Below are positions 33,501-39,290 of a DNA stretch of 64,000 bases, in pieces. The notes under the pieces are model-generated. The model did not search any database and was not told the DNA's origin. It saw only the letters and a list, made by a program, of their open reading frames with translations. The DNA comes from Candidatus Eiseniibacteriota bacterium. Its GTDB lineage: Bacteria > Eisenbacteria > RBG-16-71-46 > CAZAMP01. The position numbers were made by a program, and so were the translations under genes. The stretch's first letter is position 1. The number at the start of each line of letters is the position of its first letter. The stretch is taken from positions 1,984,001 to 2,048,000 of the forward strand of contig OZ245046.1 of assembly GCA_965224245.1 (NCBI GenBank), read 5' to 3'.

Positions 33501-34600
33501 GTCCGGTTGTACGGGCGCCACTCGCTGGTGCCCGAGATGGAGATGGTCTCGCTGCCCGAGACCGAGAGCGTGGACTGCTCGTCTCCGAAGATCGAGTGCA
33601 GGGCGCCCGGCATCGCCGGCAGCTTGATGTCGAAGATGCCGCCGGCCTGCGCCCCCTCCTCCCCGCGGCCGAGCATGCGCTTGCCGAGCCCATCCCACTG
33701 CGACTTGAATCCGGCGCGAAGCTGGAGCGCGGTGAAGTGCTCGGGCGACAGCACGCGCGCCTGCCCGAACGACTCCTCGCGGAGCCGCTGGACCCGCCGG
33801 ATCTCACCGGTGGCCGTGTCCACCTCCAGCACGAACCGCTTGTGCGTGCTGGACCCGGCCAGGCTCCAGCGGGGGGGCACGAAGTACGAGTACTGAAGCG
33901 TGTCGGAGACGGTGACCGCGGTGAAGCCGGCCGCGTAGTAGATCGAGTCCTGAAGGGCGGAGTTTGCGTACGCGTAGAGCACCGCGGCGTCGAGTCCCTC
34001 GCGGTCCCACCACTGCCAGAGGCCCATGCCCTGGCCCCGCGGCCCGGCGACCGGGGTCTCGGGACCGGGACCGGCGCCGTCGACTCCGTCCGTTTCCGGG
34101 GGAACGAGCGGCTCGCCGGCCTCCGTGCGGTCGTCGGGCCCCGGCGCGTCGCCGGATGGGGCGGCGGGGGGGGGCTCGGTGGGCTCGGCCCGCTCGAGCG
34201 TGGCGCCGTCCGCGTCGACGGCTGGATCGGATGAGAGCGCCTCCGCCGGCCCGTCGCCCGAGGGCGCCGGAGCGGCGGTCTCGTCATCGGCCCCCGAGCC
34301 CTCCACCGGGGCGTCCCGGCGGACCTCCCCCGCGCCGTTCGAATCGGGGACCGCCACGCCCGCGGCGATCGGGTCCAGGGAGTCGGCGGGCGCTGCCGCC
34401 GTATCGGCGTCGGCCCGTGAGCTCTCGTGGGGAGTGGTTCCGATCCCCGGTGGCGCGGGAGCCGCGACGTCGTCGGCGACCTCGTCGGCGGCGTGGGGCG
34501 CGGGCGGACTCGGTCCCCCCGCCACGAGAGCGGCCAGGGCGACGATGGCAACGCGCGTGAGCATCCGGGGCCGGAGGGCACGTTGGAAGGTCGGCGTCAT
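27578..34600 (-). CDS. sprA: SprA/Sov-like type IX secretion outer-membrane translocon
   Basis: About 2340 aa with signal peptide; Q.L.L.LQGSIGDK..I.ID.NSE...EN.IKI.YEG.EDEIIQ.V.LGN.SL.LP..GLFG; SE.VT.G.R.L.RG.DY.IDY.FG; KLGEEP; LDTEDLNG; VWVNELRL; beta-strand C-terminus ending in F. Confidence 0.85.
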   Translation of the reverse strand: MTPTFQRALRPRMLTRVAIVALAALVAGGPSPPAPHAADEVADDVAAPAPPGIGTTPHESSRADADTAAAPADSLDPIAAGVAVPDSNGAGEVRRDAPVEGSGADDETAAPAPSGDGPAEALSSDPAVDADGATLERAEPTEPPPAAPSGDAPGPDDRTEAGEPLVPPETDGVDGAGPGPETPVAGPRGQGMGLWQWWDREGLDAAVLYAYANSALQDSIYYAAGFTAVTVSDTLQYSYFVPPRWSLAGSSTHKRFVLEVDTATGEIRRVQRLREESFGQARVLSPEHFTALQLRAGFKSQWDGLGKRMLGRGEEGAQAGGIFDIKLPAMPGALHSIFGDEQSTLSVSGSETISISGTSEWRPYNRTTALSSESKFPDLDMRQNLFLKLQGSIGDKVFIDIDQNSEAETSLENRIKIRYEGYEDEIIQRVNLGNTSLSLPGTRYVSYGGRHEGLFGISSEARLGPVKVSAIASKQESETSTRSVPSTTSSSTRIDDIDSGNYIRRRYYFLDDPNRLVNGSVTYVNGQGMQETYTGEFLFPVNIDPSSIRLYRDDQSGLTDTEQATIDAYVTPTGLPPCACDGAPARCDDTFDDLSDYKVYKVSELVRDREFVVHPDLGTFRFRGLVIELTQPLGDIELLCASFKTLEENGDIDGDGVGNEQIGSANLADAPCGIPTYKMIGTPIDILRVENLQNGPWGPTQVLECKNIYNIRGRNISDLDLDIVWDQQTGVAATPNFEGTPYLQMLGLDVQRLEGVQPLPGHDNEVDVDLLNESTGLLHFPQLRPFAPDEFDIRYRRNILGVPDVTIDAWPDATLTGTVDESTGQLDPLLGNYPEPEIYDNKATVFRLSSDTHVTRYKMRGEFQSPINVIELNAFNILENSEVVTAGSRTLNRGSDYDIDYEFGTVTIRESANVRPDEPVNVTFAFAPTFGATSTTLAGFSASLRPEGGDYGLSSTWLYESKGNPDRRVKLGEEPTRTIIGELAGDYKTESVFLTDLLGRLPLYTPASRSQITMSGAVGLSLPNPNTKDFGYIDTFDDAREARELNLTRTAWKFPSVPTLFLDRDGLTNVEAARRRGRMAWYVPRRATLRGDLNPELSSEERDDAVRVLEWWLLPNETLDDGTVVRPQENWFGLTQSISNRGEDLSTAQFLDVWINDFNNPAVFEEGVMYLDIGQVSEDAVWWRTGPDGDNFIPTAPGKGFGFLDTEDVVTRDGRLDECLDLDVTCNEDTGLDNEFDGTEETDPNFDDWGIEGSRPDEEDDPEANLEAFEFINGTEQNNLLDTEDLNGDLGLDVTDDYFTYRFELASVDTNIVITDIQRDFGDEFDIDPDNGWRRIRIPLGADFEFSREGFPDYTQVKHVRVWFEGIGAAAPIQIATVEFIGNRWQTGAPEAPILNPAGEPADPGELALGQKFAVSVVNNKDNGDIYEPAFDLRQSRDRQGEEFEGYVSLDLLNFPDGYSGTAYRRFAQKQDYTRYDTIEFFTQVGRPSVGDLELEFFIQFGTTDGLNYYEYRKKLRPDDRGGGWTMVEIPIASFSALKQKMSGDQRYIKEIQEDGSWLVVRGSPSFADVRQISLGAKNVSGEFVRSAGVWVNELRLDDVQRNAATASEFRVDTKLSDLGSVNFSYSGQEADFLRVGEVRAGGVKTRSLSFDSSVNVDRFVPRLGLQLPVSYRFSRNTNEPKFRPGTDLIFDGENADLNVTRNSTRRFSVSYSRSPSRNPFLRYTLDGFSGSYSQDVRRNQQPDRADTTRTWNAGINYNFTTPRHRFIPLPLGMQLDYLPKNFSASTSISRSEQKRWSRSGSSVDEPLTLTNENVNKTHTADWRTSYQLLTKPAVNYQFSSSRDLRQEGGKVAGLDLGLETQRTESLSLNHTFVPIREGALGSPLGAAFTSAFNRVVAPFRPNINWSSRFSSRTQISRSDQGFSTRTPQSVENSTTIRTGASIPLSAFGRWLREITRNDPKPADVDSDGEEEAGSDEPRGRRVGGGPRGRSRAGRDDDGQATPGASGRRDGGFGMNVSLLDVNVQYTDGNSNRHSLVDRMPSFSYQLGLTSELDSDIRTLNTNQSRFGDTQNLNLSSGVKLSRIRVAGKRLGASLDVKVTYTDDSSETTTIQKGIDGSISSPTLSISDRTRWPDLQFTLNGLQEGIPFLESRFRRVGLSTRYSRSEDVTGDQTTPDRSVRVTTDWTPLAQFDATLKSGMRVTLKMDRNVGETTNNATSKSIQRDERSSFSLDVQHTINYRRRVKMPFGATRWISTQIDVAGSISIASQKRLSLNESNAFLEDAGLTQSNRDLRVSLDAGYNFTSTVQGNARLQYTENRDNKKISNTRRSLGLTLSASFRF

Positions 34601-34936
34601 CCTCACTCGACGGGGGTTGATGTGGTCGTGCCGACGGCGACGGCATCGATGTCGGCGGCGGCCTCGATGTCAGCGGCTGCACCGACCGCCGGGCCACCTG
34701 CGACGAGGGTGGCGGGCTGCTGTTCACCGACATCCTGCTCGTGTATAAACACACGACTCGTCGGATTGCTGCACCAAAATCGCGGGCTCACGCCGCCCAT
34801 GGGAACTCCCCCGCGTCCGAGCCGTGTCTTATCGGGTACGCCGAGCGCTTCCGGTGCTCGGTTGCGGGAGCAGCCCCGAGGGGGGCTCACCCATCCGGGC
34901 GACGTCCGTCGAGTCAAGTCCAACGGAGAAAACCAC

Positions 34937-36337
34937 TTGATCCTGCAAAGGTACACACTCCGCGAGATGATTTCCCCCTTTTTTCTGGGGTTCTCGTTCG
35001 TGACCTTTCTCCTGATGATGGAGCTGCTGCTGGACTACCTCGAGCTGATCCTCGACAAGGGCGTGCCCGTGTTCACGGTCGCGAAGCTCTTCGTCCTGGC
35101 GCTCGGCTGGATGCTGGCCCTCTCGATCCCGTGCGGCGTGCTCGTGGGCACGCTGATGACGTTCGGTCGCATGAGCCAGGACAACGAGATTCTGGCCATG
35201 CGGAGCTCGGGGGTCTCGGTCCTCACCCTGATGAAGCCGGCGTTCGCGTGGGGCCTCGGCTGGACCCTCTTCCTGATGCTCTTCAACAACATCGTCCTGC
35301 CCTGGAGCAATCACGAGTTCTCGCGGCTGCTCCTCGAGGTGAACCGCAAGCGGCCCACCGCCGAGCTCGACGAGGGGGTCTTCATCGAGGCGTTCGACGG
35401 GCACCGGATCCTGTTCGACCGCCTCAATCCCAAGACCGGCGAGATCCAGGGCATCAAGATCCTCGACTTCCAGAAGGGACGCCGCCCCACGACCACGGTC
35501 GCGGACGCCGGCCGGCTGTTCTACGACGGTGAGCGCGACATGCTGATCCTCGAGCTGGAGGACGGCGAGGTCTACACCGTGCCCTCCGACGCGGTCGAGG
35601 CGGCCTCGCTCCGGCGCACCGAGTTCGCCCAGCATCTCATCCGCATCGGCGGCGAGGGTCAGGGCCCGTTCCGGCCCCGCCTGCGGCGCGGGCAACGCGA
35701 GATGAGCGCGTTTCAGCTCCGTGACGAGATCGCCGCCACCCGGGCCAAGCGCGACACGCTCCTGGCCGAGCAGGACGAGAAGCTCCAGGTGCTCGGCTAC
35801 TCGGGATACGCCGAGCTGGCGGCGTTCGTGGAGACCCCCCAGCCCTGGTACGAGCGGCTGGCGGAGGCGTTCCGGGGCGGCGGGCGCCCGCATCCGCCAC
35901 CCGAGCGTCGCTTCGTCGGCCCGCCCGACGCCCGTCTGGTCGAGAGCTACAAGCTCACGAAGCTCCAGGTGGAGTCGTTCGACAAGCAGATCAACCAGCT
36001 CGAGGTCGAGCTCCACAAGAAGTTCTCGCTCTCGCTGGCCTGCCTCGTCTTCGTGCTCCTCGGTGCCCCGCTCGGGATCGTCGTGCGCCGCGGCGGCATG
36101 CGGGCGGGCGTCTGGAGCATCGGATTCCTGATCTTCTACTACATCTGCCTGATCGGCGGGGAGCAGCTCGCCGATCGTCGCCTCCTGCGGCCGGCCATCA
36201 GCATGTGGCTGGCCAACGCGGTCCTGGGCACGATCGGGCTGGTTCTGGTGGCCAACGTGCTCGGCCTCCGGCACCGCCGCTCGACCCCCCGTTCCGTCGG
36301 GCACCCGCGCCCGCACGAGGAGATCCTGGCCGGATGA
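34937..36337 (+). CDS. lptF: LptF-like LPS export permease (YjgP/YjgQ)
   Basis: ILQRY..RE..PF, FGRMSQDNEI.AM.SSG.S, ELHKKFSL..AC..F..LG.PLG; TTG start with GGAG upstream. Confidence 0.88.
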   Translation: MILQRYTLREMISPFFLGFSFVTFLLMMELLLDYLELILDKGVPVFTVAKLFVLALGWMLALSIPCGVLVGTLMTFGRMSQDNEILAMRSSGVSVLTLMKPAFAWGLGWTLFLMLFNNIVLPWSNHEFSRLLLEVNRKRPTAELDEGVFIEAFDGHRILFDRLNPKTGEIQGIKILDFQKGRRPTTTVADAGRLFYDGERDMLILELEDGEVYTVPSDAVEAASLRRTEFAQHLIRIGGEGQGPFRPRLRRGQREMSAFQLRDEIAATRAKRDTLLAEQDEKLQVLGYSGYAELAAFVETPQPWYERLAEAFRGGGRPHPPPERRFVGPPDARLVESYKLTKLQVESFDKQINQLEVELHKKFSLSLACLVFVLLGAPLGIVVRRGGMRAGVWSIGFLIFYYICLIGGEQLADRRLLRPAISMWLANAVLGTIGLVLVANVLGLRHRRSTPRSVGHPRPHEEILAG

Positions 36338-37416
36338 TCCGAACGCTGGACCGATACGTCATGGTCGAGTTCCTGAAGTACCTGACCCTGGCGATGTGCC
36401 TGTTCATCGGGCTGTTCATCATCGTGGATCTCTTCGAGAAGCTCTCCAAGTTCGTGGACAACACGGCCAGCATCACCGACATCGCGGCGTTCTACGCGTA
36501 CTCGATCCCGTACACGGTCGTGCTCACGATGCCGATGGCGATGCTCCTGGCCAGCCTCATGCTGATCGGTCAGCTCGGGCGCACCGGCGAGCTGGTCGCC
36601 ATGCTCTCGGCCGGCGTGAGCTTCCTCCGGATCCTGTCCCCGGTGCTGGTGTTGTCGGGGCTGTTGAGCGTGGGCAACTTCGCGCTGGCCGAGTGGGTCA
36701 TGCCCGATGCGCTGGAGAAGAAGGACGTCACGCTCAACGAGAAGATCCGCGGCAAGAGCGGCGACGCGGGGAGCCGCAAGCGCAACTTCACGTACATGGG
36801 ACGCGGCGATCGCCTCTACTGGATCTCGACCGTCGACCCGGCGCGCAAGATCCTGCGTGACGTCGTGGTGCAGACGTTCGACGAGGAGCGGCGTGTGACC
36901 GAACGCATCGACGCCCGCGAGGCCACGTTCGTGGACCCGGCGTGGGTGTTCCGCTCGGGCTACCTGCGCTCGGGCATGCCCGACGCCGAGCACGTGGTTC
37001 CGTTCAAGCGGCTCTGGGTCACCACCATCCCCGAGCGTCCGGAGGACTTCATGTCGAAGGAGCCCGACCCGATGAACATGGGGCGGGCGGCGCTCGGTCG
37101 GTACATCGATCGACTGAAGGAAGCGCGGGCGCGAACGCGCAAGCTCGAGGTGAACTATCACCTCAAGCTGGCTTACCCGCTGATCAACTTCATCATCGTG
37201 CTCCTGGGCGCGTCGCTCTCGGTGCGAATCCGACGAACCGGGTGGGCGCTCGGGCTGGGCCTGTCGATGTTCATCGGGTTCGCGTACTACGCGTTCATCC
37301 GCTTCGGACAGGCCATGGGATTCTCGGGTGCGATCCCGCCGCTTCTGGCCGCGTGGCTGGGGAACATCGTGTTCCTCGGCGTGGCGGTGACGTTTCAGGT
37401 GCGCGCGAACCGTTGA
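36334..37416 (+). CDS. lptG: LptG-like LPS export permease (YjgP/YjgQ)
   Basis: LDRY, GELVAM.SAG.S..R, KLAYP, PPLLAAW..N; ATGA overlap with lptF. Confidence 0.88.
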   Translation: MIRTLDRYVMVEFLKYLTLAMCLFIGLFIIVDLFEKLSKFVDNTASITDIAAFYAYSIPYTVVLTMPMAMLLASLMLIGQLGRTGELVAMLSAGVSFLRILSPVLVLSGLLSVGNFALAEWVMPDALEKKDVTLNEKIRGKSGDAGSRKRNFTYMGRGDRLYWISTVDPARKILRDVVVQTFDEERRVTERIDAREATFVDPAWVFRSGYLRSGMPDAEHVVPFKRLWVTTIPERPEDFMSKEPDPMNMGRAALGRYIDRLKEARARTRKLEVNYHLKLAYPLINFIIVLLGASLSVRIRRTGWALGLGLSMFIGFAYYAFIRFGQAMGFSGAIPPLLAAWLGNIVFLGVAVTFQVRANR

Positions 37417-37506
37417 CGTGAGCGGAGCCCGGGGGGAGCGGAGCGGGACGGGGGATCGCACGGCGGCGACGAGCGGGCGCCGCCGCCGGCGAGATCCACG
37501 AGAGGC

Positions 37507-37725
37507 CTACAGATCCTGCGGACGAAGCGTCTTGCGCTTGTTCGCGGTGGCGCGACCCTCGGCGTTCTTGATCGCGTTGCGGACGTGGGCGTCCAGGGCC
37601 GCGTAGAACTCGCTCGAGACGTTGCACTTCTTGACTGCGGCCTTCGTGCGCGACTTCGAGATGATCAGTTCCATCGGCTTCCGCGCCGACGACTTGCGCG
37701 TGCTCTTCTTCTTGGCCTTCGCCAT
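37507..37725 (-). CDS. Prokaryotic histone-fold protein (Bd0055/HTkC-like) with basic N-terminal tail, 72 aa
   Basis: MAKAKKKSTRKSSARKP-MELIISKSRTKAAVKKCNVSSEFYAALDAHVRNAIKNAEGRATANKRKTLRPQDL. RA...RKT...D histone alpha2-L2-alpha3 signature; AAGGAG RBS 9 nt upstream; own promoter. Confidence 0.85.
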   Translation of the reverse strand: MAKAKKKSTRKSSARKPMELIISKSRTKAAVKKCNVSSEFYAALDAHVRNAIKNAEGRATANKRKTLRPQDL

Positions 37726-37818
37726 GGAGTCTCTCTCCTTCGCTGGTGGGGACTCGGAGCGTTGACGCTCCTCGCGCGCCGCGGGCAGCGAACGCACGTG
37801 TTTACACGAACGGTCCGC

Positions 37819-37847
37819 AATATCGGTACCCGCCGGGGGGGTGTCAA
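37819..37847 (-). promoter_or_regulatory. sigma70-type promoter of the histone gene
   Basis: Consensus TTGACA (37847-37842), 17-nt spacer, GATATT (37824-37819); T-run just upstream of the -35. Confidence 0.7.
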
Positions 37848-37946
37848 CGAAAAAGCGCGGGCCCGGAGCGCGATTCGGGGCCGATTCCGGCCTTCCCGGA
37901 GCGATTCCGCCCCGACGGCGCCGACCGGGGCGACCCCTCGCGGAGC

Positions 37947-39290
<1,344 letters not shown>

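Follow-up and report, generated by a model that had tools for sequence, protein, structure and literature searches.

Histones of the α3-truncated superfamily are defined by an α3 helix of only 3–4 residues and a shortened α2 (Schwab et al. 2024, PMC11390915). In the same study, face-to-face (FtF) histones are defined by a predicted torus-shaped tetramer, many bacterial FtF histones are described as having tails, most of which carry positive charge, and bacterial dimer histones are described as being without the logo residues R48 and N52. HTkC, the archaeal FtF histone of Thermococcus kodakarensis (PDB 9F2C; PMC11390915), and HLp, the FtF histone of Leptospira perolatii (PDB 9QT0, 9QT1 and 9QT2; PMC12701072), both wrap ~60 bp and compact DNA (PMC12701072; bioRxiv 10.64898/2025.12.06.692711). 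In HTkC, R45 (logo R48) forms a salt bridge with the C-terminal carboxylate of the opposite dimer, for which a free C-terminus directly after α3 is needed, and the R45A substitution gives dimers (bioRxiv 10.64898/2025.12.06.692711). In HLp, DNA is contacted by K15, K17, K21 and R59 together with an R55–D62 clamp, and the first six residues are not visible in the HLp–DNA crystals (PMC12701072). HBb (Bd0055) of Bdellovibrio bacteriovorus (PDB 8CMP, 8FVX and 9EZZ) is a DNA-bending dimer (PMC11390915).

We examined a 72-aa protein encoded in a 64,000-nucleotide stretch of a Candidatus Eisenbacteria genome (the window), and compared it with these systems. It shares with HLp a bacterial origin, a single α3-truncated fold with a short N-terminal extension, the tetramer R and N, the NKR(K/T)T.RP.D string in loop 2/α3 and a C-terminus one residue after the Asp, and its AF2 model superposes on HLp at an rmsd of 1.1–1.3 Å over 54–55 residues (Z 7.1). 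The two differ in that identity is 30–32%, HLp comes from another phylum, the tail of this protein exceeds that of HLp in length and, by far, in basicity, and the wrapping of ~60 bp shown for HLp (PMC12701072) would extend to this protein by homology. HTkC is the best PDB sequence match (38–42% identity across 53–57 residues), with R58 here at the position of its tetramer-critical R45, and VS.EFY.AL and RKTL are common to both; however, HTkC is without a tail, carries E49 where N62 stands here and His for the motif Asp, has an L1 that is 4 residues longer, and has its minor-groove R22 at the position of Asn35. HBb likewise shows the α3-truncated fold (Z 6.7–7.0, rmsd 1.3–1.5 Å) and RKT....D, but is only 23–24% identical, carries S and D in place of R58 and N62, and shows no long basic tail in the aligned chains.

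The histone gene and its surroundings

The gene (protein P0001) lies on the minus strand at 37507..37725 and is complete, with 72 codons followed by TAG; its ATG is at 37725–37723 and its stop at 37507–37509. A Shine-Dalgarno sequence, AAGGAG (37740..37735, minus strand), stands 9 nt ahead of the ATG, and the start is backed both by this site and by homologs. In the mechanical ORF list the same frame is extended to a 258-aa GTG ORF (37507..38283, minus strand, start at 38283), of which 337 upstream nt overlap, in a different frame, the biotin carboxylase gene accC (37947..39290, minus strand), whose 447-aa ORF carries three biotin-carboxylase domains (E 2e-78, 3.8e-47 and 1.9e-41). The upstream extension is therefore spurious and the 72-aa reading correct; an earlier model-made reading of the letters (the sequence-only reading) had picked out this frame and its AAGGAG, and the frame, the ribosome-binding site (RBS) and the accC overlap agree with it. 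Its description of the gene as hidden applies to the longest-ORF track, Pfam and NCBIfam, but not to a 5.8-billion-protein collection, where a gene for the identical 72-aa protein (P0001) had already been called on a 6.45-Mb contig.

Neither Pfam-A (by hmmscan) nor NCBIfam gave a match to the 72-aa protein at E ≤ 10. In the 5.8-billion-protein collection, 881 of 883 candidate proteins were homologs at E ≤ 1e-3, and the names given to relatives by their sources were "hypothetical protein", "DUF1931 domain-containing protein", "histone H3/H4" and, once, "citrate lyase gamma subunit". An exhaustive search of the 50%-identity representatives returned 125 matches at E ≤ 1e-3 and 40 at E ≤ 1e-10, which indicates a histone family that is compact in sequence space. 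Furthermore, a relative was encoded in 527 of the 584 pattern matches found among contigs from one genome per species, corresponding to 527 species genomes. These homolog counts show that the gene is more than a product of chance.

The histone gene is situated between lptF/lptG on the plus strand, whose LptF_LptG domains were matched at E 1e-74 and 4e-85, and accC-pilT on the minus strand. A sigma-70-like promoter sequence, TTGACA (37847..37842), 17 nt and GATATT (37824..37819), spans 37819..37847 on the minus strand, with its −10 element ending 93 nt upstream of the ATG; it was the sole match in 37300..38100, where 0.0 were expected in shuffles. Identical hexamers with identical spacing were found upstream of the ortholog in a genome of the same family (G001), TTGACA-16-TATATT stood upstream of another ortholog (G014), and the strict pattern occurred at 3 of 11 in-phylum loci. 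TTGACA-17-GATATT is thus a candidate for the histone gene's own promoter, as judged from its match to consensus and its recurrence. A scan of the histone region found no intrinsic terminator. An 11-bp GC-only hairpin (37456..37492, minus strand) lies ~19 nt past the histone stop, where the histone and lptG genes converge; it was rejected as a terminator, having no U-tract and a folding energy ordinary for its G+C content (z −1.0). As a separate observation, the first LptF/LptG-family permease appears as a 636-aa mechanical ORF (34427..36337, plus strand) with a long Arg/Pro/Gly-rich N-terminal extension that is probably untranslated, and its Pfam match starts well inside the ORF (tested from 35000 on).

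The neighbourhood was rarely retained. Among the best 80 loci of other genomes, accC was nearby in one (L072), and lptG, lptF and pilT in none; among nine in-phylum loci inspected with ~1.5 kb of flank each, the accC-histone-lptG order survived only in G001, a genome of the same family. The ortholog that shares both family and locus is only 77% identical.

Fold and tetramer surface

Codons 18–72 (37510..37674, minus strand) encode an α3-truncated histone fold, as indicated by the AF2 model, Foldseek, VIA-align, PDB profile matches and invariant alignment columns. The AF2 model (mean pLDDT 78; 80–95 across residues 21–72) comprised α1 (24–30), L1, α2 (38–61, 24 residues), L2 and a one-turn α3 (69–71), and DSSP on this model gave a 3-residue helix at 69–71 with the C-terminus at 72. 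Searched against the PDB as a single sequence, the protein matched HTkC 9F2C best (E 4.7e-4), followed by HLp 9QT0 (E 0.58). A profile built from 50 of 120 listed relatives, which we chose ourselves with preference for named or long-contig entries, matched HTkC 9F2C at E 4.9e-9, HLp 9QT0 at 4.4e-4 and HBb at 0.31–0.48. PDB matches to transcription elongation factor 1 (E 1.3–1.5) were rejected as compositional, being aligned to the Lys/Ser-rich tail only.

Structure comparison gave the same families. The best eight Foldseek rows were all HTkC, HLp or HBb (TM by target 0.77–0.87, rmsd 1.1–2.2 Å), with E-values of 2.8e-3 to 5.4e-2 that lie above 1e-3 because the domain is tiny. Similarly, VIA-align aligned 53–56 residues with HLp, HBb and HTkC at an rmsd of 1.1–1.5 Å and Z 6.7–7.1, a level (Z ~7) that can also arise for common helical arrangements; its top seven rows were α3 histones, the next row had Z 5.0, and eukaryotic H3/H4 rows had Z ≤ 5.0. 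The RxTxxxxD motif (Arg-Asp clamp) is present as R64-K-T66-LRPQ-D71, and R64, T66 and D71, which align to the HLp R55–D62 clamp, are invariant in 50 of 50 alignment rows. The protein thus combines a histone fold, a 3-residue α3 and the RxTxxxxD motif of the α3-truncated superfamily (Schwab et al. 2024), and is a histone with this fold over residues 18–72. The sequence-only reading, which had compared residues 18–72 with short prokaryotic histones of the HTkC and Bd0055 kind and had named Foldseek and a structure model as checks, was right on this point, with HTkC, HLp and HBb as the top matches.

Two Pfam families were considered by name. DUF1931 (PF09123), a 138-position pseudodimer model, did not match the protein and matched nothing genome-wide at E ≤ 1; the protein is a single 55-residue fold, in contrast to the pseudodimeric PF09123 proteins. 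CBFD_NFYB_HMF (PF00808), the family of archaeal and nucleosomal histones, did not match the protein either, and its only match in the genome (E 0.21, below the cut-off) lies elsewhere. A further feature of the fold region is C34 in loop 1 (KKCNVS; codon 34, 37624–37626), which is kept in at least 90% of relatives, is Ser in one sub-clade, and has no Cys counterpart in the aligned solved relatives.

The DNA-contacting residues of HLp, K15, K17, K21 and R59, align to R26, K28, K32 and R68 of this protein, and the clamp corresponds to R64–D71. The minor-groove R22 of HTkC aligns to an invariant Asn, N35, so the DNA contacts may differ in detail. In short, computation shows a 55-residue histone fold in which the DNA-backbone and dimer–dimer ring residues of the solved relatives are retained.

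The residues of the dimer–dimer ring are those expected of an FtF histone. R58 aligns to HTkC R45 in the HMMER alignment and N62 to the Asn of HLp, and both are invariant in 50 of 50 rows, while the corresponding residues of HBb are S and D; in the logo of Schwab et al. (2024, PMC11390915), N62, R64, T66 and D71 correspond to N52, R54, T56 and D61. The chain stops at L72, one position past D71, and the listed relatives end in D[LI], with the exception of the extended P0076. Multimer models had been suggested as a check by the sequence-only reading, and four copies were indeed predicted to tetramerise through the FtF surface: ipSAE was 0.88 (best of three controls 0.00), against a mark that, in a calibration on two copies rather than the four used here, 20 of 30 proteins solved as one-chain pairs attained, compared with 1 of 23 single-chain structures. 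The four-copy runs agreed in at least 95% of contacts, partner pLDDT was at least 81, and the contact lists placed the second dimer at residues 57–58, 61–62, 64 and 68–71, beside the classical dimer interface. Since the HTkC and HLp tetramers are already solved, this prediction shows likeness to them and may be memory. R58, N62, a predicted tetramer through the α2 C-terminus, L2 and α3, and a free C-terminus together assign the protein to the FtF histones.

The basic N-terminal tail

Codons 1–17 (37675..37725, minus strand) encode a Lys/Arg/Ser/Ala-rich disordered tail, MAKAKKKSTRKSSARKP, which contains 6 K, 2 R and 4 S/T, as the sequence-only reading had counted, and has a net charge of ~+8. 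AF2 pLDDT was below 50 at residues 1–3 and 6–14, with block means of 47 (residues 1–10) and 55 (11–20). A basic tail was present in every relative examined; the 166 tails analysed were drawn from 243 proteins, 77 of which, many of them distant or partial 50%-identity representatives, had been dropped as being without the core motif or without a Met followed by at least 3 K/R in 9 residues.

These tails (8–48 residues, median 17) were composed of K (34.5%), A (27.2%), R (9.0%), T (6.0%) and S (4.2%), K making up 79% of K+R, with a median net charge of +6, and 160 of the 166 began with "MA" (homolog pattern MA[AK][KR]KK). The position of Met18 was occupied by Met in 2 of the 166 and by A, V or G in 147; moreover, a GGAG-type site was located 5–12 nt before the ATG of the tail at 10 of 11 in-phylum loci, the eleventh being unscored. 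Homologs starting consistently at Met18 would have spoken against a translated tail, and these counts point the other way. ARKS occurred in 1 of the 166 tails, RKS in 5 and SARKP in 3. These results indicate a translated tail under selection for its charge and composition and not for any motif. The basic tail proposed by the sequence-only reading is therefore real and conserved in character, but the likeness that it saw between the RKS and ARK strings and the H3 K9/K27 contexts did not hold up, there being no conserved motif, and from their rarity the H3-like strings are probably chance.

Eukaryotic and Asgard histone tails are likewise disordered, positively charged N-terminal extensions on a histone fold; the tail described here differs from them in having no conserved modification motif, in its K/A-rich, low-complexity composition, and in the lack of a SET enzyme in the genome. 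In composition, such tails may lie nearer to those of linker histone H1 or actinobacterial HU, which are rich in Lys and Ala. A survey of writers, conducted as a search for the SET domain, found none in the source genome and none in the 17 histone-bearing genomes, with SET domains present in 33 of the 206 phylum genomes; co-occurrence with SET was accordingly discarded as support for a "histone code". With neither a positional motif nor a SET writer, the tail does not qualify as a eukaryote-type modifiable tail.

Tail length looks lineage-specific. Tails of 40–50 residues with (A/T)KK(A/T)-like repeats, approximately as long as the fold, were seen in some Planctomycetota-labelled relatives; the long-tailed relatives are L004, L014, L037, L038 and L076–L078 (42–52 residues), together with P0006, P0081, P0090, P0092 and P0118. 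These long tails resemble Lys/Ala-rich tails of the linker-histone type. HLp is the closest model, and as its residues 1–6 are invisible in the crystals it gives no structural guide to the tail (PMC12701072). In the searchable text of the bacterial-histone literature cited here, we found no tested contribution of the tail in any bacterial histone.

Lineage distribution and proposed role

The histone was found in 12 of 41 class relatives and in 17 of 206 phylum genomes (the source genome counted), of which 15 matched at E ≤ 4e-30 and two at ~1e-4. The latter two, from another family of the phylum (G060:C6:38682-38861 and G062:C71:24971-25147), may be a more divergent histone-fold protein. A single histone gene is present in the source genome; one further match (E 0.27) was rejected as a second copy, being a low-complexity similarity. 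HU/IHF-family proteins gave three matches in the source genome and a match in all 41 genomes of the class sample. The idea of histone-based chromatin in this lineage, put forward from the letters alone, is thus sound as regards the presence of a histone but overstated as a lineage-wide claim, since three HU/IHF genes coexist with it and only 17 of 206 genomes have the histone.

The family forms a tight, always-tailed clade with MA(A/K)KKK tails, whose 53-residue core is 70–87% identical among MAGs labelled as Planctomycetota, Myxococcota, Eisenbacteria and Methylomirabilota. Core identity to the source histone was 70–87% whatever the phylum label, the labels being the submitters' own, except in the variant L072. 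At this locus (L072:4001-4165) loop 1 is one residue shorter (KAAVSCKVAS) and RST stands for RKT; it is also the sole one of the best 80 with an accC-like neighbour. The core was more similar to Planctomycetota-labelled proteins (up to 86.8% identity) than to those of its own phylum (69.8–79.2%), and in a quick tree of 86 rows, from which L072 and three duplicate loci were left out, the source histone grouped with Planctomycetota-labelled rows, with 0 starred branches. An AU test did not reject a single clade for the 12 in-phylum rows (p 0.148), and the same-locus, same-family ortholog is only 77% identical. Horizontal transfer is therefore not demonstrated; with 53 alignment columns, the histone core is too short to decide it. 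Near-identical cores were also seen under distant labels, in L031 (a 3.1-kb contig, Luminiphilus sp.), L049 (Verrucomicrobiota) and L019/L070/L080 (Spirochaetales); given the shortness of some distant-label contigs, mistakes in binning or labelling would explain these cores just as readily as horizontal transfer.

Taking the evidence together, we consider it quite probable that the protein is a nucleoid-associated, tetrameric FtF histone whose tail adds electrostatic grip and which acts alongside HU/IHF. We infer its DNA binding, oligomeric state and abundance, and likewise the role of the tail, as follows. By homology to HLp and HTkC, two head-to-tail homodimers would join through the C-terminal end of α2, loop 2 and the one-turn α3; R58 would pair with the free C-terminal carboxylate of the opposite dimer, with N62 helping, to give a closed tetramer, around which ~60 bp of DNA would wrap with no sequence specificity, resulting in nucleoid compaction. 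The disordered K/A/R-rich tail would emerge beside the "paired ends of helices" DNA site of α1 and may add a non-specific electrostatic grip on entering, exiting or neighbouring DNA, in the manner of the Lys/Ala-rich tails of other nucleoid proteins and not as a motif-specific signalling platform. The gene would be monocistronic, driven by its own near-consensus promoter and a strong RBS, and its product would work beside the three HU/IHF-family proteins, not as their replacement.

A dimer in the manner of HBb, in which a homodimer bends DNA and no tetramer forms, is unlikely. The HBb fold matches as well as those of HLp and HTkC (VIA Z 6.7–7.0; TM 0.77–0.81), Planctomycetota are among the phyla with bacterial dimer histones in Schwab et al. 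(2024, PMC11390915), and the tetramer prediction might merely echo FtF tetramers already solved; however, the profile is far closer to the FtF members (HTkC 4.9e-9 and HLp 4.4e-4, versus only 0.31 for HBb), R58 and N62 are invariant here where HBb has S and D and where bacterial dimers lack both by definition, and a confident second interface was predicted exactly at the R58/N62 region.

The remaining alternatives concern function. If the tail were a eukaryote-like regulatory platform, dedicated enzymes would write and read marks on specific Lys/Ser residues (RKS/ARK) to control chromatin state. Bacterial nucleoid proteins are known to undergo lysine acetylation, and a disordered, basic, Lys-rich tail is found in every relative examined. 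This reading is nevertheless very improbable, given that tail positions are not conserved (8–48 aa; ARKS in 1, RKS in 5 and SARKP in 3 of 166), that the 33 of 206 phylum genomes with SET include none of the 17 histone-bearing ones, and that the genes adjoining the histone are accC, pilT and lptF/G, with no modifier among them. Less probable still is a small basic histone-fold protein with a non-packaging job, such as a locus-specific regulator or protein partner, even though Schwab et al. (2024, PMC11390915) caution that not all "histones" need be global organisers, HU/IHF in every sampled genome means that a packaging role for the histone is not obligatory, and the histone is patchy in the phylum (17 of 206 genomes). 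Against it, the protein is a single domain with no extra module and retains all backbone-contacting basic residues of HLp, its core is 70–87% identical across differently labelled phyla, its promoter and RBS are near consensus, and the two FtF relatives that have been characterised, HLp and HTkC, are DNA-wrapping and DNA-compacting proteins (PMC12701072; bioRxiv 10.64898/2025.12.06.692711).

Read as a nucleoid-associated FtF histone, the protein has precedents: bacterial FtF histones with positively charged tails are already in print (Schwab et al. 2024, PMC11390915), and the novelty that the sequence-only reading attached to the tail was therefore overrated. We found no paper that mentions "Eisenbacteria" and "histone" together; the search covered main texts, and the clade may already appear in the taxon lists and tail survey of Schwab et al. 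(2024; Supplementary Figs 6, 8 and 13). The new points are modest, namely a phylum not linked with histones in the searchable main-text literature, a blind spot of Pfam and NCBIfam, and an attractive tail. As these libraries miss a clade present in at least 527 species genomes, surveys that depend on them undercount bacterial histones.

The current picture of bacterial chromatin is left unchanged by this gene. A bolder reading, which we regard as decidedly unlikely, is that the clade is a dominant chromatin protein under H4-like constraint, with tail length and lysine charge tuned in evolution, and perhaps reversibly by acetylation, to set nucleoid compaction; if true, bacteria would have evolved their own tail-regulated chromatin, separately from eukaryotes. 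The study of bacterial histones is still young, and only HBb and HLp, neither of them from this phylum, have been characterised biochemically in bacteria. To these the gene adds an FtF histone that is well defined, easy to synthesise at 72 aa, and equipped by nature with a long basic tail. Its occurrence next to HU/IHF genes in a Candidatus Eisenbacteria genome is a data point on the coexistence of histones with classical nucleoid proteins.
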